A stretch of 59,525 nt of DNA from a virus. The stretch lies in the IMG/VR virus record IMGVR_UViG_3300045988_114220, one strand, 5' to 3'. Below, piece after piece: positions 2,053 to 35,935 of the stretch. The position numbers were made by a program, and so were the translations under genes. The notes under the pieces are model-generated. The model did no database searches. It saw only the letters and a list, made by a program, of their open reading frames with translations, and had not been told where the DNA came from. Position 1 is the stretch's first letter. The number at the start of each line of letters is the position of its first letter.

Positions 2053-3672
2053 ATGTTCAAAATGCGTACAACGAAACCCGAAAAGGGCAACAAATACTAT
2101 AACACCAAAGGGAACGGCGGATATTCAAACGCTATCAAGGGCAGTCCCACCGATAAGGATTGCAATGTGCTTTCCAACTGCGTAGGATATGCCTACGGCC
2201 GTTTCAATGAAATCGGAGGCTATGGCTGTTGTAAATACCTCGCCCCGGTAAATGCGGAGAACTTTATGCAGTATAAAGGCTCTTGCAAAACCGGGCAGAC
2301 ACCGAAAGTCGGCGCGTGTATGGTGTGGCAAAAAGGCGCGACGCTCAAAGGCAACGACGGCGCAGGACACGTTGCTATCGTTGAAAAGGTAATCAGCCCG
2401 ACGGAGGTTGTCACCTCGGAAAGCGGTTGGGGCTGTAAAAATCCGTTTTGGACGCAGACCCGGAGAAAGGGCGCAAACGGGAATTGGGGCGCAGGAAGCG
2501 GCTACAAATTCCTCGGATTTATCTACAATCCTGCCGTAAAAGATACCGACACCGAGCCGGAGAAAACCTACACCGCCGGAGCGAGCAACGAGCAGACAAT
2601 TTACAACTATCTGACACAGGTAGCCGGACTCAACTGTGCGGCAGCTTGCGGCGTTCTTGCGAATATCGAGGCGGAGTCGGCTTTCCGCCCGAACAATTTG
2701 CAGAATTCATACGAAAGAAGCCTCGGCTATACAGACGAAACCTACACGGCGGAGGTAGACAGCGGAGCATACGGCAATTTCGTAAAAGACTGCGCGGGAT
2801 ATGGGCTTGCACAATGGACCTATTGGAGCAGAAAACAAAAGCTGCTCGAATTTGCCAAGAGCAAAGGAAAGTCAATCGGCGATATGGGTATGCAGCTTGA
2901 ATTTTTCGTGCAGGAAATCAAGCAGTACAGCGGCGTTTGGAAGTGCCTTACTACGGTAGCAAACACAGCCGAGGGCGCATACAACGCCGGACACACCGTT
3001 TGTTATTCATACGAAGCGCCGGCCGCAAAGGAAACCTCCTCGGTGACACGCGGCAACCGTGCAAAGGTGTTATATGCAAAGTATTCGGGTGAGCCGACAC
3101 AGAGCGGCGGGACCGTGCAGGACGGCGACACCGTATATACTGTAAAGAGGGGCGATACCCTGTCGGGAATTGCCGCAAAATACGGAACAACATATCAAAA
3201 ACTCGCCGCCTACAACGGCATTAAAAACCCGAACATCATCAGCGTAGGTCAGCAAATCAAAATCCCCGGCAACACAGCGGAAGCGCCTACCCCTGCGGTT
3301 AAGCCTGCCGAGCCGCCGCAGACGACAAAGCCGACAACGGAAACGACCGAAACGGTCTACACCGTAGTCAAAGGCGACACGCTTTCGGGAATTGCGAAAA
3401 AGTACGGGACAACCTACCAAAAACTCGCCGCATATAACGGTATCAGTAACCCGAATGTAATCAGCGTCGGGCAGAAAATCAAGATACCCGGAACGGCGGC
3501 GAAACAGCCGGAGGCGAGCCGTACTTATACCGTAGTCAGAGGCGACAGCCTGTGGGGTATTGCCGCAAAACTGCTCGGCAAAGGCTCACGCTACCCCGAA
3601 ATCAAGAGCCTTAACGGACTCACATCTGATGTCATTACAGCAGGGCAAGTGCTGAAAATCCCGGAGAAGTAA
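2053..3672 (+). CDS. Modular endolysin: CHAP-like peptidase + phage lysozyme-like domain + 3x LysM
   Basis: The N-terminus has a Cys/His CHAP-like region ([15 protein letters not shown]). The middle has [15 protein letters not shown], which is phage-lysozyme-like. Three repeats of [29 protein letters not shown] are LysM domains. RBS GAGGAGG. Confidence 0.85.
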
Positions 3673-8176: not shown

Positions 8177-9769
8177 TTAATCAGATTTCGGTATTTTCGG
8201 ATATAGCGTAATCTCAAAATCGTCGGGAGCGTTATTCCACCGCCCGTTTTTGGTTTTGAGGTAGACAACCTTTTCTAACACCTCTTTGAGCATATCATTC
8301 TTTGCTTTTGCGGACGGAAGCGAGTCGTAGACGTCGAGCAGCTTCTCCACTTTGGGGATAATCTGCTTCCGCCCCCGCTCCCGTTTCTTGTCGGCGGCAA
8401 TATCCGCGCCGAGTGTGGAACGGTCCGCCTCGTTCTTTTTGATACGCTCGGAGAGTTTACGGGAACGGTCGAGAAATTGCTCGGTGGTGTAAACGCCCTG
8501 CTCCAAAAGGTCGTGAGCATTATCAAGTTGCTTATTGAGAGTGTCGTATTCGGTAGCGAGCCGTCGGAGCGCCTTTTCTTTCAAATCCACCGCCGAGGCA
8601 TTGTCGGAGGTATCGTCAGCGGTTTCCCATTGCAGGCGGTATTCAGCGAGCCAATCACTCAAAGCCTGCAATACTCGCTCCTCGACATAAAACAGCGCCG
8701 AGGAAATGTTATCGCAAGCGGTATCGGCGCAGAGCAATGTATCTGCTTGGTTACGGTCGTTATACGGTCGGCGTACCATTTTCTTTCCGCATTTCGCACA
8801 GACGACAAGCCCGGACAGAGGATTTTTTACTTTGTTACGCTCGCCTATCGGGTGCGGCGGATTTTGAGCCATATATTCCTGCGCTAATGCGAAAGTAGCG
8901 TCGTCAATCAGCGGAGGGTGTTTCCCGTCGGCAAGAACGCAGTCGTCTATCGAGGAACGAGGACGAGCAATAACAACACGTCCGTCCACCATTTTCTTTG
9001 AGTCCTTGCGCCAATTCCAACGAATTTTGCCGATATACACAGGATTTATCAAAATATCGCGGATAGTCGCAGGCGACCAGTGGTTACTCTTTCGAGGCGG
9101 AATACGCATATCATTGAGCCGACGAACAATACGGGAAACGCCGAGGCGCTTATAAGAGCCGTCCTCTTGCTCCTCGCCATTTGTGTAGAGTTGGAATATA
9201 AGACGGACAATATCAGCCTCCGCCGGAAGCGGAGCGAGGGTGTAGCCTTTATCTCCGACAAGTTTTTCCCTCTGATAGCCGTAGGGCGACTGACTGCCGA
9301 CATATTTTCCCTCTTTGACAGAGGCAATGCGACCGCGCTGTAAACGGCGGTTAATCGTTTTGTATTCGCGCCGGGACATAAACAAGCCGAACTCAAAATA
9401 TTCCTCGTCAAACTCATTGTTCGGGTCATAGTCCTTAATCGGGGTAATGATTTTGGTATCGGAGAATTTGAAAGTCTGCGCTACAATGCCTTGGTCTACG
9501 GTATCACCGCGAGCAAGACGCTCGACCTCCATAACGAGAACGCCGTCCCATAGACCTTGCTCAACCTCGGAAAGCAACTGTTGCATAACCGGGCGGGCAG
9601 CTATGGTTTCGCCGGAAACGATTTCCCGGTAGATTTGCGTTATATCCAAATGCCGCCGTTTCGCAAGGTCTAAAAGGGCGTTGATGTGCCTGGTGAGAGT
9701 TTCGCCCTCACCGCGAGCCTCCGCCTCTGCGTCCGCTCTTGATTTACGGACATATAAGCAATACGGCAT
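8177..9769 (-). CDS. Large serine recombinase (integrase)
   Basis: N-terminal resolvase-type catalytic domain (YVRKSR... with Ser-10). It also has a recombinase domain, a Cys4 zinc ribbon (CAKCGKK...CADTAC) and a C-terminal coiled-coil. 530 aa. Confidence 0.9.
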   Translation of the reverse strand: MPYCLYVRKSRADAEAEARGEGETLTRHINALLDLAKRRHLDITQIYREIVSGETIAARPVMQQLLSEVEQGLWDGVLVMEVERLARGDTVDQGIVAQTFKFSDTKIITPIKDYDPNNEFDEEYFEFGLFMSRREYKTINRRLQRGRIASVKEGKYVGSQSPYGYQREKLVGDKGYTLAPLPAEADIVRLIFQLYTNGEEQEDGSYKRLGVSRIVRRLNDMRIPPRKSNHWSPATIRDILINPVYIGKIRWNWRKDSKKMVDGRVVIARPRSSIDDCVLADGKHPPLIDDATFALAQEYMAQNPPHPIGERNKVKNPLSGLVVCAKCGKKMVRRPYNDRNQADTLLCADTACDNISSALFYVEERVLQALSDWLAEYRLQWETADDTSDNASAVDLKEKALRRLATEYDTLNKQLDNAHDLLEQGVYTTEQFLDRSRKLSERIKKNEADRSTLGADIAADKKRERGRKQIIPKVEKLLDVYDSLPSAKAKNDMLKEVLEKVVYLKTKNGRWNNAPDDFEITLYPKIPKSD

Positions 9770-21871: not shown

Positions 21872-22440
21872 ATTGCAGATACTTAAAAGGCTCGGAGCAT
21901 AGCCCCGAAAGCGTCGAATTTGATACAGAAAACACGACTTGCGTTGTGAATGTCGATTTACTGTTATGCGGAATAAAAAAATTCCCTTGCGGCGACGGAA
22001 GCGACAAAAACCTCTCTACCAAAGAGCGCTACGACATTCTGAATTTTGTTGAGCGGGAACGAGGGGAAATTATCCATAAAGCAGGTCCGAAGTCAATGGC
22101 GAGTTGGGAGAACAGTGGACTCGGCTCGTTTGACGATTATTTTGTTCCCGGAGATATTGTAACGGAAGATGTTTACGATAACTTTCTGAATATCCTGCCG
22201 CCTGCGACAATGTGGAAAAACCTACTACAAGTCGGAGGGTCGGTCGCATACGAAAAAGACCCGGAAACAGGAAAGTACAGAGCCACATACACGACTTTCG
22301 CAAAGGCTGACGGTCAATGGTGGTATGTCGGAGAGTGCTTTATCAGAGAAACAACAAACAGACGAACTCGACCCAACAAACTCTCATTGAGGATTTCAGA
22401 GGTCGAAAAAGAATTAAAAGCGGAGGCAGAAAAGAAATGA
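21868..22440 (+). CDS. Hypothetical protein
   Basis: ATGA overlap. Confidence 0.5.
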   Translation: MNCRYLKGSEHSPESVEFDTENTTCVVNVDLLLCGIKKFPCGDGSDKNLSTKERYDILNFVERERGEIIHKAGPKSMASWENSGLGSFDDYFVPGDIVTEDVYDNFLNILPPATMWKNLLQVGGSVAYEKDPETGKYRATYTTFAKADGQWWYVGECFIRETTNRRTRPNKLSLRISEVEKELKAEAEKK

Positions 22441-23780
22441 GAAAATACACCGTAAATGACTTCTTCTGCGGTGCAGGGGGGGTGGCGCTCGGATTTATTA
22501 AAGCCGGATTTGATGTGATTTGGGCGTGCGATTTTGACAAGCATTGCGTAAAGACCTACGCCCACAATGTAGGCGATTGGGTGCGAGAGGCTGATGTAAC
22601 AAAGATTACATACAAGGATATTCCGAAAGCGGACGGTTGGACTTTCGGTTTTCCGTGCCAAGACCTCTCCGTAGCCGGGAAGCAAGCCGGATTTCAATTC
22701 CGTTGCCTCGACTGCGGAACAGAATGGAAACACGAACACGAGGGGCTTTCCCCTATCTGCCCCAAATGCGGAGCAACGAACTATACGGCAATCACCCGAA
22801 GCGCTTGCTTTTTTGAGATTATGCGCCTACTCGACGAAACAGAGCGAAACGCCCCGGAGAATTACCCCTCGTTTCTACTCGCCGAAAATGTAAAGGGGCT
22901 GAAACCGTATATCCCCGTTTTGACAGAGCAGCTCGAACAGAGAGGTTTTGACGTGCATATTCAACTTTACAATTCAAAGTATTGGAATGTGCCGCAGAAC
23001 AGAGAGCGCTATTTTATCGTTGCCACGCCGAAAGGAAAAGGAAATTTCAAATTCCCGGAGGAACAACACGAATATGTGCCGAAACTCTCCTCCGCCCTCG
23101 ATAAAGAGGTGGACGAGAAATACTATATCCCCGACGAAAAGGCGCAGACGATTATCCTACAAGCGTTGCAGAAAATCGAAAATCTCGGCAATGCTCACCC
23201 GTGCATTACGCCGGACCGTCTGAGCAAGAGGCAGAACGGGCCAAGAGCAAAAGGCGACGAGGCGGAAATGTTCACGCTCACCGCGCAGGACATTCACGGA
23301 ATTATAATTCAAGAGCGCAAGGGCGTGAGCCGGGACGCAATGAAATACATTTCGGACAAGCTGCTCGAATTTGTCGAAAAGAAAGGATATATCCCAAAGT
23401 TTTTCAATCCGTATAACTGCTCGGATTGCGGAGAACTCGCACCGACGGCAACAACCGCTTGCGGCGGACTCACAACCTCGGCGACGGTACTCGTGTTCAC
23501 GGACAAGAACAGCGGAGAGCCTGTCATTATTCAGTTACCGAGAGGCAAAAACGGAGGCAACATTCACGACGTCGCTCCGACCTTAACCGCCAACGCGTAT
23601 GAGCAGAACAACTATGTTTGTGAAAATATCGAGGCGGTCGAGAGCAAAATCTGCAACGAGAGCGGATTGCTTGACCCGGAGGGGCAAGGAAAAACGCTCC
23701 GCGTTGGCGGGGGGGGGTCGCTGACAAAGAAGCACAATTATCAGCACATTTTAGTGAAACAGTCCGAGGCGGAGTCTTGA
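22437..23780 (+). CDS. DNA cytosine-5 methyltransferase, N-terminal portion (motifs I-VIII plus several TRD-like TL repeats); reading frame terminates after a G9 tract
   Basis: Motif I FFCGAGGVALGF, motif IV GFPCQDLSVAGK, ENV (motif VI) and QNRERYF (motif VIII). TRD-like segments MFTLTAQDIHG and VAPTLTANAY. A Cys4 ribbon is inserted after motif IV. Confidence 0.85.
   Translation: MRKYTVNDFFCGAGGVALGFIKAGFDVIWACDFDKHCVKTYAHNVGDWVREADVTKITYKDIPKADGWTFGFPCQDLSVAGKQAGFQFRCLDCGTEWKHEHEGLSPICPKCGATNYTAITRSACFFEIMRLLDETERNAPENYPSFLLAENVKGLKPYIPVLTEQLEQRGFDVHIQLYNSKYWNVPQNRERYFIVATPKGKGNFKFPEEQHEYVPKLSSALDKEVDEKYYIPDEKAQTIILQALQKIENLGNAHPCITPDRLSKRQNGPRAKGDEAEMFTLTAQDIHGIIIQERKGVSRDAMKYISDKLLEFVEKKGYIPKFFNPYNCSDCGELAPTATTACGGLTTSATVLVFTDKNSGEPVIIQLPRGKNGGNIHDVAPTLTANAYEQNNYVCENIEAVESKICNESGLLDPEGQGKTLRVGGGGSLTKKHNYQHILVKQSEAES
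23709..23717 (+). repeat. G9 homopolymer inside the MTase gene (frameshift hotspot)
   Basis: ggcgggggggggtcg. The +1 frame downstream (23718..23896) is open and encodes ...GIFVGVSPTLIATDYKGPHLVIED. Confidence 0.9.
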
Positions 23781-23888
23781 AAAAGCAACGTAACGGAAAA
23801 GGCATATTTGTAGGCGTTTCCCCAACGCTTATAGCAACGGACTACAAAGGTCCACATCTCGTAATTGAAGACAAGGAGGACGGCAAAA

Positions 23889-24548
23889 ATGAGTAAAGAA
23901 TATCTCGAATGCGTCGTAAATGACAGAGGCTTTGTAAGCAAGCCCGCGCAGATAACACCAATCGCACCAACGCTCCGAGCGCAGGATCACGGAAATCAGC
24001 CGAAAGTCGTTGAGGTGAAAAGCGAAGCAACGCCCGGAATTGAAGTAATCGGAATGCTTGAAAACAGCGGAACAACACAGCAGCACAATAACCGGGTACA
24101 CAGCGTAGACGGAATATCGCCGACGCTCACGGCCGTTTCGGGCGGCACACATCACATTAAAATCTTTGATATTTCTCGGTTTAGAGTCCGCAAACTCACG
24201 CCGACGGAATACGGTCGCTTGCAGGCTTTCCCTGTTGACGACGGTTGGGAACAGGTCGTTTCCGACAGCCAAGCCTACCACCAATTCGGCAACGCCGTTA
24301 CGGTGTCGGTAGTCGAGGCAATCGGACAGGCAATCGGGAGTTATCTTGACAGCATTTTCGGAGTTGAGGCGGAGGCAGTCGAAGTCACCGACTTGTCCGA
24401 CGCACCGCAGGAAATCAAAGAACAGATTATATCCAATGCCGAGGCGCTCGAAGCAAAGGAAGAAAAGGCACATACAAGCGGGCTTGAATTCTTCTCAAAT
24501 GAGGAACTGCTCGCAGAACTCAACCGCCGAATGACGGTACACGCATAA
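23889..24548 (+). CDS. DNA cytosine-5 methyltransferase, C-terminal portion (TRD-like segments plus motifs IX-X)
   Basis: RBS AAGGAGG then ATG at 23889. Contains IAPTLRAQDHG and ISPTLTAVSGG. Motif X is RKLTPTEYGRLQAFPVDDGWE...QFGNAVTVSVVEAI. Confidence 0.75.
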   Translation: MSKEYLECVVNDRGFVSKPAQITPIAPTLRAQDHGNQPKVVEVKSEATPGIEVIGMLENSGTTQQHNNRVHSVDGISPTLTAVSGGTHHIKIFDISRFRVRKLTPTEYGRLQAFPVDDGWEQVVSDSQAYHQFGNAVTVSVVEAIGQAIGSYLDSIFGVEAEAVEVTDLSDAPQEIKEQIISNAEALEAKEEKAHTSGLEFFSNEELLAELNRRMTVHA

Positions 24549-24561
24549 GGAGGACAAAGAA

Positions 24562-25623
24562 ATGAAACTATTTAGCACAGAACAGGTATCAAAGTATCAC
24601 CCTGACAAATACGCAGACCAAATCAGCGACGCTATCCTCACCGCTTGTTTGAGAGATGACAAAAACAGCCGTGTAGCCTGCGAGTGTATGGTAAAGGGAC
24701 GGACTGTTATTCTCGCCGGAGAAATCACCACTACGGCAAAGGTAGACTATGCGGAAATCGCAAAGAGAGTCGGAAAGAAACTCGGATATGAGGTTGACAC
24801 CGTAATTCAGCAGATTTGCACACAGTCACCCGAAATCGCCGGAGGCGTAAAGAGCGGCGACGAACTTTGTGCCGGGGACCAAGGCATTATGTTTGGATAT
24901 GCCTGTGACGACACAGAAAGCGGCCTGCCCTACGCTTTTGATATGGCGAATAGAATTATCCGTCTATTGGAAAAAGACACGACAGCGCCGAATTCAGCAC
25001 TCAAAGGGGACGCGAAATGCCAAGTAACCGTAGACACCGAGAAACCCAAAGACGACCGCAGCCTCGTAGAAATCCTCGTCAGCGTATGCCACAAAGAACA
25101 GTATAAGCTAAAAGACATCAGAGAGTATGTGCGAAACCTTATCAAATACAGCGGAATTGACATTGGAGAAGCAACACTCAATATCAACCCGGCAGGCGTA
25201 TGGACTTTCGGAGGACCGGCGGCAGATTGCGGACTCACGGGCAGAAAAATCGTATGCGACCAATACGGCGGATTTTGCGCTGTTGGCGGCGGAGCGTTCA
25301 GCGGAAAAGACCCGTCAAAGGTTGACCGCTCGGCGGCATATATGGCGAATTATATCGCCCGCGACCTCGTAAAAAATCACGGACTGAAATCCTGCGAGGT
25401 ACAGATTGCCTACGCCATCGGAGAAAGCGCGCCTATGAGCGTTTCGGTAAAATCCTCGTCCCCGGTCGAAGACGCATATTTCGCAAAACTTGTAGAGGAA
25501 AAATACGACCTCACACCGGCCGGCATTATCAAATACCTCGACCTCCTCAATGTGGACTACGAGAAACTCGCCGAGGGCTGTCATTACAGAATGGAGCTGC
25601 CGAAAAGAGGAACAAACAAATGA
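24562..25623 (+). CDS. metK: S-adenosylmethionine synthetase
   Basis: HPDKYADQISDAIL, GDQGIMFGYA and GGGAFSGKDPSKVDRSAAY are hallmark MetK motifs. RBS AAGGAGG. Confidence 0.9.
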   Translation: MKLFSTEQVSKYHPDKYADQISDAILTACLRDDKNSRVACECMVKGRTVILAGEITTTAKVDYAEIAKRVGKKLGYEVDTVIQQICTQSPEIAGGVKSGDELCAGDQGIMFGYACDDTESGLPYAFDMANRIIRLLEKDTTAPNSALKGDAKCQVTVDTEKPKDDRSLVEILVSVCHKEQYKLKDIREYVRNLIKYSGIDIGEATLNINPAGVWTFGGPAADCGLTGRKIVCDQYGGFCAVGGGAFSGKDPSKVDRSAAYMANYIARDLVKNHGLKSCEVQIAYAIGESAPMSVSVKSSSPVEDAYFAKLVEEKYDLTPAGIIKYLDLLNVDYEKLAEGCHYRMELPKRGTNK

Positions 25624-26582
25624 GGGAAAACAAATACACGGTTGCCGATTTAACGGCTATGCAAGCGTGGCCCCTTTCTCGGAAAATTCAAGTAACACAA
25701 ACGCGCATTATTGAGTGGTACATAAAAAACGAGGGGCGGGTCTATGTGTCATTCAGCGGAGGCAAGGACAGCACGGTTTTGCTCGACCTTGTAAGACGAA
25801 TATATCCAGAAGTCCCTGGCGTGTTTTTAGATACTGGGCTTGAATATCCCGAAATTCGAGATTTTGTCAAAACAAAGGAGAATATTGTTTGGTTAAAGCC
25901 CGAAATGAATTTCCGAAAAGTCATAGAAACATACGGCTACCCACTTGCAAGCAAAGAAATTTCTAAACAAATAAGCGCAGCCCGGCGAGGTGCGAAAAAT
26001 GCAATCCTCGCTTTTGACGGCAAAGATGTCGCAGGAAACGAAACCGAGCACAGGAAGCGATATAAAAAATGGAAATTTCTATACGAAAGCAATATTCCAA
26101 TTTCGGAAAAATGCTGTGAAGTTATGAAAAAGAAGCCTGCAAAGAAATATGAGAAAGAAACCGGGAGAAAGCCAATTATTGCGACTATGGCGGAAGAAAG
26201 CACTTTAAGAGCGCAGGCGTGGTTGAAGAACGGTTGCAACGCATTCGACGGAAAACGCCCCACATCACAACCTATGTCGTTTTGGACCGAGCAAGATGTT
26301 CTAACATACCTCAAAGAATACCATATACCGTATGCGCCTGTATATGGAGAAATCGAGGAAATAAACGGAGCATTAAAGACTACGCTATGCGATAGAACAG
26401 GGTGCGTATTTTGCGGTTTTGGTTGCCATTTAGAAAAAGAGCCGAACAGATTTCAACGGTTAAAAATAACTCACCCGAAGTTGTGGGAGTATTGTATGAA
26501 GCCGTGGGAAGCCGGAGGGCTTGGAATGAAAACACCGCTTGAATTCATAGGGGTAAAGACAGAAACGGAGGAAGAATTATGA
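25620..26582 (+). CDS. PAPS-reductase-like ATP pyrophosphatase (PP-loop) with C-terminal Cys cluster (IbrA/DndC-like)
   Basis: PP-loop VSFSGGKDSTV. C-terminal CDRTGCVFCGFGC. Confidence 0.8.
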   Translation: MRENKYTVADLTAMQAWPLSRKIQVTQTRIIEWYIKNEGRVYVSFSGGKDSTVLLDLVRRIYPEVPGVFLDTGLEYPEIRDFVKTKENIVWLKPEMNFRKVIETYGYPLASKEISKQISAARRGAKNAILAFDGKDVAGNETEHRKRYKKWKFLYESNIPISEKCCEVMKKKPAKKYEKETGRKPIIATMAEESTLRAQAWLKNGCNAFDGKRPTSQPMSFWTEQDVLTYLKEYHIPYAPVYGEIEEINGALKTTLCDRTGCVFCGFGCHLEKEPNRFQRLKITHPKLWEYCMKPWEAGGLGMKTPLEFIGVKTETEEEL

Positions 26583-27283
26583 AGCCGATATACGAGCCGA
26601 AAGGCAAAGCAAAAGAATACGGCGACTATGCGCTGAATATCTACACAGGCTGTCCGCACCGCTGTTTTTACTGTTTCGCCCCGAATGTTTTGCATAAGGA
26701 CCGTGAGATATTTTACTCAAACATAGAGCCGAGGACAGATATAGTCAAGGCGACAAAGCGGCAGCTTGAAAACGAAATGATAACCGGGAAACTCATTCAT
26801 CTCTGTTTCACTTGCGACCCGTACCCGACAGGCTACGACACTACACCTACACGAGAAATAATCAGAGCCATTAAGGAACACGGGAACAATGTTCAAATAC
26901 TCACCAAAGGCGACGGGAGCAGGGATTTTGATTTGCTCGGCCCGGAGGATTGGTACGGCATAACCCTCGACGGAGCGACAACTCGAACAGGACATTTTGA
27001 TAACGCACCCCTTTTCAGATACACCAATCTCATAAAGGCACACGAAAAAGGCATAAGGACTTGGGTATCATTCGAGCCTGTGCTGAACGCCGAAAATGTA
27101 CTCGGAATGATAAAGGACATAGCACCACACACAGATAAGGTAAAAATCGGGAAACTGAACTACCACAAGTCAGATATAAATTGGGCGGAATTCGGGAGAA
27201 AAGCCGAGGAACTCTGTCAAAAACTTGGACTTGACTGTTATATCAAAGAAAGCCTACGAGCAGAAATGGAGGCAAAGAAATGA
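26579..27283 (+). CDS. SPL-type (DNA photolyase-like) radical SAM protein, copy A
   Basis: TGCPHRCFYCFA is a CxxxCxxC motif in the SplB-like GCxHxCxYCFA context. Confidence 0.6.
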   Translation: MKPIYEPKGKAKEYGDYALNIYTGCPHRCFYCFAPNVLHKDREIFYSNIEPRTDIVKATKRQLENEMITGKLIHLCFTCDPYPTGYDTTPTREIIRAIKEHGNNVQILTKGDGSRDFDLLGPEDWYGITLDGATTRTGHFDNAPLFRYTNLIKAHEKGIRTWVSFEPVLNAENVLGMIKDIAPHTDKVKIGKLNYHKSDINWAEFGRKAEELCQKLGLDCYIKESLRAEMEAKK

Positions 27284-34081: not shown

Positions 34082-35100
34082 TGGGGTGCATTTGCGGAAG
34101 CCAAGCAATCCTATGCAACCTACCTATTCGCTTTGACACCTACAAGGGGTGTAGTCACGGTTGCCGATATTGCTTTGCACAGAAAAAGCAGGACATAGCC
34201 AAAATCGGAAAAGGTGAAACGGCGGAAAGCCTGCGGAATTTTATCGAGGGAAAGCGCACCGACACGACGAATTGGTGCGATTGGAAAATCCCCATTCATT
34301 GGGGCGGAATGAGCGACCCGTTTCAGCCTATCGAACGGAAATACAGAGTATCGTATGAGTGCTTGAAGCTGCTCGCCGAAACGAAGTACCCATTTGTCGT
34401 AAGCACAAAGGGCCGACTTGTGGCAACGCCGGACTACATAGAACTGCTGTCGAAATGCAACTGCGTCGTACAGATTTCTATGGTGTGCAGTAAATACGAC
34501 AAACTCGAAAGAGGTTGCCCGCCTTATGAGGAGCGCCTCGAAATGGTGCGGAAACTCGCCCCGAAAGTACAGAGAGTCGTTGTCAGAATTCAGCCGTATA
34601 TGTTGGAAGTATTCGACGACGTGATGAAAAACATTCCCCGCCTCGCAGAAGCAGGCGTATACGGAGTTGTCGTAGAGGGAATGAAATTTTTTAAGGCAAA
34701 AGAGGGTATGGTGAAAATCGGAGGCGATTATTGCTATCCTCTGCCGCGTATCCGCAGAGATTTTGAGGCTATCCGAGCGGAGTGCCACCGAAACGGCATT
34801 AAATTCTACGCGGGAGAAAATAGGCTGCGCGCAATGGGCGACAATATGTGCTGTTGCGGCATAGACGGCCTGCCCGATTTCAAGGGAAACGACTACAACC
34901 TATGTATGCTATTGAATGGTAAAAACCCACAGCCGACGGAACTTATGAAAACAGTCGGGACCGGCGGTTGCTTCAAGGCTCTTAATCAGAGCGCAGGAAG
35001 CAGCAGAAAACTCACGAAGCAGTCTTTTTACGGGCTTATGCAAGAAGAACTCGCAACAAAACTTGATTACCATAGAAAGGTGTTCGGACTTGACGAATAG
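34081..35100 (+). CDS. SPL-type radical SAM protein, copy B
   Basis: Contains YKGCSHGCRYCFA. Confidence 0.7.
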   Translation: MGCICGSQAILCNLPIRFDTYKGCSHGCRYCFAQKKQDIAKIGKGETAESLRNFIEGKRTDTTNWCDWKIPIHWGGMSDPFQPIERKYRVSYECLKLLAETKYPFVVSTKGRLVATPDYIELLSKCNCVVQISMVCSKYDKLERGCPPYEERLEMVRKLAPKVQRVVVRIQPYMLEVFDDVMKNIPRLAEAGVYGVVVEGMKFFKAKEGMVKIGGDYCYPLPRIRRDFEAIRAECHRNGIKFYAGENRLRAMGDNMCCCGIDGLPDFKGNDYNLCMLLNGKNPQPTELMKTVGTGGCFKALNQSAGSSRKLTKQSFYGLMQEELATKLDYHRKVFGLDE

Positions 35101-35935
35101 CCTCACCCCGGTACAAGAAATAAACGGACTGCTGATGAAGCGTGAGGACCTTTACGCTCCTTTCGGGAGAGGAGAGGTAAACGGAGGAAAACTGAGGCAA
35201 TGTATGATGTTGACGGATAGCGTCCTCGCTGCCGACAATGGCGTACAATGCCTCTTTACTTATTGTAGCATACATTCACCACAAGCGCCGATAACGGCCG
35301 CCTCTGCCCGTTCTCACGGCTTGCCCTGCTACATTGTATACGGAGGAGGAAAAGCAGAGAATGTTAAAACATTGCCTATGCCGCGATTGGCAATGAAATA
35401 CGGCGCTCAAATAATTATCGGAGCGAGGAGCGGGCGGCATAATGTTCTTTATGCGGCTACGAAGCCTCTTTCCGAGAAAAAACGCGGATTTATAGTACAA
35501 TACGGCATTAACCTCGTAGGCTATGGTGATGTACTTCTCGACGCTGTATCAGCACAGGTTGAAAATATCCCGAATGAGATAGAAAATCTTGTTATGACTT
35601 GCGGAAGCGGAATAACCGCCTCCGGCGTAATGATAGGACTACACAAATACGGGAAAAAGGTCAAGAATGTTCACCTCGTAGCAACCGCCCCAGACAGACG
35701 AGCGTTTATACACGCAAATTTAAGGCAATACGGAGCGGACAGAGAATTTCATTATCACAGTCTATTCCATACGCCCGGATTTGTATATGAAAAAGGCGCA
35801 AAGGCGGTATGGGGGGGTCTAACGCTTCACCCACATTACGAGGCGAAGACAATGCAATGGTTTATGCAAAGCGGACTCAACCCCTCCGACACCCTCTTTT
35901 GGATAGTCGGCGCAGAGCCGTCGAATAGAGCGTAA
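35088..35935 (+). CDS. PLP-dependent fold-type-II enzyme (ACC deaminase/D-cysteine desulfhydrase-like)
   Basis: Contains LMKREDLYAPFGRGEVNGGKLRQ. The start is uncertain: TTG at 35088 after AAAGGTG, with alternatives at 35063 and ATG 35135. Confidence 0.5.

Follow-up and report, generated by a model that had tools for sequence, protein, structure and literature searches.

How is a phage DNA methyltransferase gene read when a run of nine guanines stands between two of its possible continuations? The question is raised by IMG/VR virus record IMGVR_UViG_3300045988_114220, a 59,525-nucleotide (nt) stretch of DNA that we analyzed as a whole and refer to as the window. In it, a C5-methyltransferase gene with tandem target recognition domains (TRDs, or modules) ends shortly after a G9 tract, a second frame is open across the same region, and a separate gene with its own start supplies the rest of the enzyme. 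The first-pass annotation of this sequence saw a methyltransferase interrupted at the tract and offered phase variation, a split gene or homopolymer sequencing errors as explanations. The first two hold at once, the tract being variable and the split conserved, and sequencing error is unlikely. Rather than an interruption, the tract is probably a switch between alternatives: the interpretation that we favor, and consider likely with real room for doubt, is a three-state poly-G switch (TRD4, TRD5 or neither) in a split multi-TRD phage C5-methyltransferase. We hold with high confidence three narrower points: real polymorphism of the tract, selection on both frames and a natural split of the enzyme.

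The elements on which the argument turns are the following.

22437..23780, plus strand: open reading frame 1 (ORF1), the α subunit in the G9 state; ATG at 22437, frame 0, 447 aa, TGA at 23778-23780
22476..22482, plus strand: second poly-G tract, G7 within motif I (GCA GGG GGG GTG)
23628..23756, plus strand: TRD4 (module D), frame 0, IEAVESKICNESGLLDPEGQGKTLRVGGGGSLTKKHNYQHILV; its Gly run is encoded by the G tract
23675 to the TAA at 23894-23896, plus strand: open stretch of the −1 frame, 73 codons, …KGIFVGVSPTLIATDYKGPHLVIEDKEDGKNE and stop
23709..23717, plus strand: hypermutable G9 tract, the proposed switch; exactly nine G, setting the ORF1 reading frame
23717..23767, plus strand: out-of-frame linker, VADKEAQLSAHFSETVR, read solely in the −1 frame state and overlapping the end of TRD4 and the ORF1 tail
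23768..23872, plus strand: TRD5 (module E), −1 frame, GGVLKKQRNGKGIFVGVSPTLIATDYKGPHLVIED
23873..23879, plus strand: Shine-Dalgarno (SD) sequence AAGGAGG for ORF3
23889..23896, plus strand: overlap of the ORF3 start with the −1 frame stop, ATGAGTAA
23889..24548, plus strand: ORF3, the β subunit, 219 aa, ATG start

Length variation of the G tract

The number of guanines, n, determines what follows TRD4. When n mod 3 = 0, frame 0 is kept and TRD4 is completed, giving 447 aa at n = 9. When n mod 3 = 1, reading passes into the frame that one added G leads into, termed −1 translationally, and takes in TRD5 (485/486 aa). When n mod 3 = 2, the product ends RVGGGGR-stop at 428 aa with neither TRD4 nor TRD5. 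The end of the methyltransferase frame at 23780, soon after a G9 run at 23709..23717, and the roughly 73 codons that stay open in the other frame up to 23896 had been described in the first-pass annotation, and all of these coordinates are confirmed. The G9 run is the longest homopolymer of the window; one such run in 59.5 kb exceeds the chance expectation only mildly. GGG accounts for just 12% of the Gly codons here, and lineages that differ at the flanking synonymous sites (pS, synonymous polymorphism, about 0.3) retain the tract.

Exact scans for the tract and its flanks found no more than 2 loci in IMG/VR and 2 in JGI metagenomes, with none in GTDB genomes; comparing the locus by megablast with 50,697 phage records gave no match. 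Because the pattern scans yielded so few loci, the tract-length distribution was taken from protein clusters: 69 distinct relatives were drawn from seven 90%-identity clusters, with tract lengths inferred from the protein sequences. The implied lengths are G7 in 10, G8 in 26, G9 in 22, G10 in 5, G11 in 2, and G12 and G14 in 1 each; by frame, 29 distinct relatives fall in frame 1, 23 in frame 0 and 15 in frame 2. All three frames occur in 6 of the 7 clusters, and the seventh shows frame 1, with frame 2 reached there solely through a 2-nt deletion variant. At the DNA level, the tract is 7, 8, 9 or 12 G long in 16 related contigs, and these four lengths also cover the 17 loci compared as DNA.

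The relatives' proteins part company exactly at the Gly run, which is followed by RVGGGGSLTKKHNYQH… in frame 0, takes the form RVGGG(G)VADKEAQLSAHF… and runs on through TRD5 in the −1 frame, and ends as RVGGGGR-stop in the third frame. Frameshifts among them are almost confined to the two poly-G tracts; the exceptions are small indel variants directly at the tract (P0157 and P0177), and the remaining length outliers resemble contig-end truncations. A G7 contig (L002) shows 0 mismatches over 3527, 3145 and 2501 nt to three G9 contigs (L006, L007 and L008) from different samples, the 2-nt difference in tract length being the sole difference. The tract is thus a simple sequence repeat (SSR) that lies inside a coding region, sets its frame and is polymorphic in length among otherwise identical contigs. 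The exact 447-aa G9 product (protein P0121) is found on 8 contigs from four source collections (NCBI, JGI, Logan and ENA), and G9 is therefore not a one-off error of the window assembly.

Two coding frames and a split gene

Frame 0 beyond the tract is not a dead end. It completes TRD4 with GGGGSLTKKHNYQHILV, and this second half of the module is conserved. A complete TRD4 stands in frame within the single-chain relatives P0010, P0015, P0028, P0058, P0068 and P0091, with the consensus GKTLRVGG[GHA]GS[LI][ST]KKHNYQH[IVL], and its Gly run can be encoded without a homopolymer, as GGC GGA GGC GGT in L052 and GGT GGC AGT GGC in L037. On this evidence TRD4 is ancestral in frame 0.

The −1 frame reads …VRGGVLKKQRNGKGIFVGVSPTLIATDYKGPHLVIEDKEDGKNE up to its stop. 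It had been called TRD-like, and this description is borne out: the same kind of module stands in frame in the single-chain relatives P0024, P0026 and P0085 and in L037, where TRD4 and a TRD5-like module share one frame. The TRD5 frame is open from the tract onward in all 17 loci, the linker portion included, and a conserved TRD5 start codon was not found among the aligned lineages; the tract is therefore the only conserved route to TRD5 translation.

Ratios of nonsynonymous to synonymous polymorphism (pN/pS) were computed among ten unique relatives, with the following results.

First 39 nt past the tract (SLTKKHNYQHILV): frame 0, 0.05; −1 frame, 1.27; third sense frame, 0.63
Nt 39-63 past the tract: frame 0, 0.58; −1 frame, 0.84; third sense frame, 1.05
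Nt 63-150 past the tract (TRD5): frame 0, 1.80; −1 frame, 0.20; three further frames, 1.4-2.6

Purifying selection acts on both downstream frames, first on frame 0 over the TRD4 half and then on the −1 frame over TRD5, and constraint is relaxed in both frames in the zone between. Over nt 63-150, four of the five other frames give 1.4-2.6; the antisense frame that shares wobble positions reaches 0.38, but it has stop codons.

Other ways of reading this region were considered and rejected. As an independent mini-ORF, TRD5 could start at TTG 23777 only in the sublineage of the window and in L003; L009 has a GTG, and other lineages have no start codon. A ribosomal frameshift joining TRD4 to TRD5 between +39 and +63 finds no conserved slippery sequence in a zone relaxed in both frames. 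The antisense ORFs 23527-23805 and 23829-24473 have stops in the stretches analyzed, and their constraint mirrors that of the sense frames.

The two genes together make up one C5-methyltransferase. ORF1 carries motifs I (FFCGAGG), IV (GFPCQDLS), VI (ENV) and VIII (QNRERYF) followed by recognition modules A-D; it matches the N-terminal part of Pfam family PF00145 (E 2e-42) and aligns with M.HaeIII and M.HhaI over motifs I-IV. ORF3 contains two TL segments, modules F (IAPTLRAQDHGNQPKVVEV) and G (ISPTLTAVSGGTHHIKIF), then motif IX (RKLTPTEYGRLQAFP), motif X (QFGNAVTV) and an acidic C-terminal tail; it matches PF00145 profile positions 237-323 (E 3e-13) and aligns with M.HhaI residues 223-323, which comprise the TL recognition loop and motifs IX and X. 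The PF00145 motif set therefore runs in canonical order across the pair, I, IV, VI and VIII in ORF1 and IX and X in ORF3, and the gene layout is of the M.AquI type, with the proximal variable region in the first gene and the distal region in the second. The separate ribosome-binding site, ATG at 23889, two TL segments and motifs IX-X had been recognized in the first-pass annotation and are confirmed here; its multi-TRD assignment also stands, with seven TL-type modules (A-G) across the locus where it had about six. A zinc-ribbon insert of the form CxxC…CxxC (FRCLDCGTEWKHEHEGLSPICPKCGATNY) lies at 22686-22793 in ORF1, between motifs IV and VI; it has weak Pfam matches to Zn_ribbon_8 and DUF7130, under the cutoff, and is kept across relatives with variable sequence.

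All close relatives encode ORF3 separately, behind an SD of its own and from a start codon that is ATG or GTG. Its protein cluster has 81 members, mostly of 219 aa and intact in most cases, and GGAGG-type sites precede the start in most aligned relatives. An overlap of 4-8 nt between this start and the −1 frame stop is present in every lineage (ATGAGTAA, GTGAATAA, ATGAGTGA, ATGGATAA, ATGAATAA or ATGA), in what looks like a translational-coupling arrangement.

The proposed switch and its rivals

The most likely interpretation of these results is that the G run in the Gly loop of TRD4 serves as a contingency tract whose length changes most likely arise by slipped-strand mispairing in replication. 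The α subunit would provide catalytic motifs I-VIII and a set of tandem modules, and the β subunit, made independently from its own SD and ATG, would contribute two modules and motifs IX-X and complement α noncovalently, as in M.AquI. With n = 9 or 12, TRD4 would be completed (…GGGGSLTKKHNYQHILV) and α would stop there. With n = 7 or 10, TRD4 would be cut past its Gly run and the 18-residue linker would lead into TRD5 (…VSPTLIATDYKGPHLVIED), with a stop that overlaps the start of ORF3. With n = 8, 11 or 14, α would end RVGGGGR-stop at 428 aa. We infer the slippage mechanism, its reversibility and rate, the complementation between subunits and the differing specificities of TRD4 and TRD5. A phage population built in this way would be heterogeneous in the sequences that it methylates, plausibly a form of bet-hedging between host restriction and methylation-dependent restriction.

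The tract in motif I probably adds a whole-enzyme ON/OFF layer. It is kept as G7 or G8 in all loci and is frameshifted in eight relatives (P0125, P0174, P0130, P0131, P0134, P0137, P0144 and P0145), whose ORFs enter from another frame or begin at V16, just past the tract. It is probably an ON/OFF switch for the entire α subunit.

Several points weigh against the three-state switch. The evidence for tract variation is a comparison between assemblies, not within one population. The commonest assembly state, G8, yields neither module, as might equally be expected of a gene that is frequently just broken. The 18-residue linker shows no purifying selection in the −1 frame (pN/pS 1.27 over the first 39 nt). 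Part of the effect could come from ribosome or RNA polymerase slippage at this tract. Most documented SSR phase variation is from Proteobacteria, Campylobacter/Helicobacter and Mollicutes, and our literature search found no report of it for Clostridia phages.

The alternative that survives best, which we consider unlikely, moves the slippage from DNA to its expression: through transcriptional slippage or −1 ribosomal frameshifting on G_GGG_GGG, one genotype would make several α isoforms in a set ratio, and DNA variation would be secondary. In the G9 state, the G followed by GGG GGG in frame 0 is a valid X_XXY_YYZ heptamer, and a −1 slip there leads exactly into the TRD5 frame; the overlap at the ORF3 start indicates that the −1 frame is meant for translation, and slippage at the RNA or protein level would account for selection on both frames within a single genome. 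However, a programmed frameshift site is normally conserved, whereas tract length here is unfixed, from 7 to 14. Folding of 23700-23800 reveals no downstream stimulatory RNA structure (z = −0.12), and no SD-like stimulator lies at the usual distance from the tract. Most of the slippage-prone runs known from bacteria consist of A/T, which also weighs against this alternative. Slippage during expression and a DNA switch are compatible, not mutually exclusive.

Homopolymers are classic sites of indel error and the relatives are metagenome assemblies of unknown coverage, so a single true tract length misread in sequencing or assembly has to be weighed; we give it very little credence. Error does not readily produce lengths of 7 to 14 with comparable numbers in three frames, a tract difference of 2 nt in contigs that come from independent samples and are identical elsewhere, or the same G9 protein on 8 contigs from four sources, and the pattern is also present in a cultured, isolate-sequenced phage, Roseburia phage Shimadzu. 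Nor does it explain purifying selection on the alternative frame, the stop/start overlap or the exchange of cassettes.

Equally improbable is decay, in which a former single-chain multispecific methyltransferase was frameshifted and its downstream pieces are pseudogene remnants. This would suit the single-chain relatives that hold TRD4 in one frame with a TRD5-like module (L037) or have all tracts in phase (L053), as well as the prevalence of the truncated G8 state. However, purifying selection acts on TRD5 and the ORF3 modules (pN/pS 0.20), most members of the 81-member cluster have an intact ORF3, and the SD, start codon and stop/start overlap are all retained. The architecture, moreover, is kept from 99% to about 50% identity, with functional-looking cassette replacement.

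Least credible is the proposal in the first-pass annotation that one more G in the tract and one fewer A in the A5 run yield a single ∼700-aa polypeptide: its arithmetic is sound (G10 with A4 gives a 703-aa ORF) and single-chain relatives of 680-695 aa exist (P0028, P0058 and P0091), but no such fusion occurs in about 70 close relatives, a search with the repaired protein gave no full-length close match, the proteins that it returned being about 428, 447 and 485 aa long and 75-99% identical, relatives keep the SD and start of ORF3 but not the A5 run, the only single-chain member of the close clusters (P0149) came from deletion and not repair, and a G10 reading ruins the conserved TRD4 half and would lose one module to gain another because that half is encoded in frame 0.

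Relatives, genomic context and comparison with known systems

At 50-76% identity, the same layout recurs with at least four different alternative-frame TRD cassettes placed after the same out-of-frame linker. Such −1 frame products with differing cassettes are seen in distant relatives (P0012, P0020, P0023, P0027, P0070, P0076, P0086 and P0106) and within the close clusters (P0154, P0158 and P0172). In single-chain relatives, modules A-G are each present or absent independently, that is, they behave as mosaic cassettes. P0149 (NCBI MBR5818153.1, from a Clostridia bacterium metagenome-assembled genome (MAG)) is a 568-aa single chain inside a close cluster, in which a deletion joins …ICNESGLLDP of TRD4 straight to DGISPTLTAVSGG of the last module and takes out the tract, TRD5, the ORF3 start and module F; this deletion is therefore evidence of recombination between modules.

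The cultured Roseburia phage Shimadzu (L050, LR596903.1) has the same split layout and two poly-G tracts, G8 in TRD4 at 2708 and G10 in the last module, TLTTCGGG, at 3001; GenBank labels its pieces orf41 and orf42 and leaves the gap between the two unannotated. The Lachnospiraceae MAG L018 combines G9 in TRD4 with an alternative −1 frame module and has a further tract, G8, in the last module. At 2812-3000 of L018, an in-frame fusion puts the motif IX-X end of a different C5-methyltransferase at the head of the methyltransferase ORF, which suggests tandem methyltransferase genes. A single-chain relative of 680 aa (L053/L054) contains three tracts (G8, G9 and G9), all in phase, at 982, 1039 and 1327 in the L053 gene. 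In P0062, a variant of L053, the first two tracts shift in compensation, so that scrambling is limited to the second half of TRD4 and reading then returns to frame. L051 (P0010) has a G9 tract without an open alternative frame and would represent a plain ON/OFF layout. Judged from their sequences, these relatives may be arranged as a stepwise series, from no tract through a tract in a single chain to the type seen in the window, with a tract, an alternative-frame module and a split gene.

The genes around the methyltransferase include the following.

8177-9769, minus strand: serine recombinase
24562-25623: S-adenosylmethionine (SAM) synthetase (MetK), directly downstream of the methyltransferase
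25620-26582: protein resembling 3′-phosphoadenosine-5′-phosphosulfate (PAPS) reductase, downstream of MetK
26579-27283: radical-SAM protein, downstream of the PAPS-reductase-like gene

The window also encodes a portal protein, a tape-measure protein, a CHAP/LysM endolysin and a small terminase subunit, and by its gene content is a temperate siphovirus-like phage of Gram-positive gut Clostridia. The host is named no more finely than this because a search through GTDB found only relatives of ≤57% identity, in Clostridiaceae, Lachnospiraceae and Oscillospiraceae. The region 24562-27283 looks like a SAM-supply and DNA-modification gene cluster; in the relative L001, a Dam-like MethyltransfD12 gene also occupies this downstream position. 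A further G7 run at 35811-35817 lies inside ORF 35063-35935 (phrog_3650, function unassigned), just upstream of the small terminase gene.

A close comparison in architecture is with the multispecific C5-methyltransferases of Bacillus phages (M.SPRI, M.Phi3TI, M.Rho11sI and M.H2I; Trautner and colleagues, cited in PMC8936443 and PMC12707154). These enzymes share with the window enzyme a phage origin, a single core (motifs I-X) with tandem TL-type modules between motifs VIII and IX, and modules that behave as exchangeable cassettes among relatives. The similarity of the locus to Bacillus phage records is only partial. The Bacillus phage enzymes each consist of one polypeptide whose module set is fixed, and we know of no homopolymer switch described for them, whereas the window enzyme is encoded by two genes and has a hypervariable poly-G tract at one module boundary with an overlapping-frame alternative behind it.

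Natural two-subunit C5-methyltransferases are represented by M.AquI and M.EcoHK31I, and complementing fragments are known for M.BspRI, M.BsuRI, M.HhaI and M.SssI (PMC3404938). M.AquI is likewise encoded by adjacent genes, the larger for motifs I-VIII together with a portion of the variable region and the smaller for the distal region and motifs IX-X (PMC3404938), but it has just one specificity, CYCGRG, and lacks a phase-variable tract, whereas both window subunits are multi-module and the α C-terminus is variable. In Mycoplasma agalactiae, a mid-gene poly(G) of 6-11 switches a CpG C5-methyltransferase by setting its frame, and its length varies between and within strains (PMC9465063). That system is chromosomal, of single specificity and ON/OFF (truncated or full length), in contrast to the window locus, which is borne by a phage and has three states, two of them with different modules. 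The NgoAV hsdS1 polyG of Neisseria gonorrhoeae alters recognition with the number of G (GCAN8TGC vs GCAN7STCA); as in the window, the tract stands at the end of a specificity region and determines whether the polypeptide is truncated or is extended or fused, and its G6-G9 distribution among strains is comparable to that of the window relatives (PMC9577141). NgoAV is a chromosomal Type I m6A system with a separate HsdS and a downstream hsdS2, whereas the window tract lies inside a Type II-like phage C5-methyltransferase and leads into an overlapping frame.

Multispecific phage C5-methyltransferases, split C5-methyltransferases and SSR phase variation, including polyG changes of specificity, are each known singly. 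Their combination in a phage-borne, split, multi-module C5-methyltransferase whose poly-G tract toggles overlapping-frame modules is undescribed in the literature that we found; the search returned no poly-G TRD switch in phage C5-methyltransferases, its coverage being incomplete and absence from it no proof.

We suggest tentatively, at somewhat less than even confidence, that poly-G tracts in module Gly loops or boundaries form a general modular phase-variation system of gut Clostridia phage methyltransferases. If so, each tract would independently silence a module or swap in an overlapping-frame one, and 1-3 tracts per gene (as in the window, L018, Shimadzu and L053) together with the motif-I tract would give each genotype a combinatorial methylation repertoire. 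This would amount to a phage-borne "phasevarion" that evades both classical and methylation-dependent restriction and might reprogram host methylation in lysogens. Because the design is also present in a cultured phage, it is directly testable. For annotation, it matters that such genes are now called truncated or fragmented "methyltransferase" or "hypothetical" ORFs, as with Shimadzu orf41/orf42. The locus also offers a clean natural case of overlapping coding, in which a mutable switch precedes two protein modules selected in overlapping frames. Among phage counter-defenses, multispecific methyltransferases are a classic and have hitherto been treated as fixed enzymes; a module-swapping homopolymer would instead provide stochastic, heritable variation of the phage epigenetic coat, which bears on the host range of gut phages facing the opposed pressures of Type II and methyl-dependent Type IV restriction.

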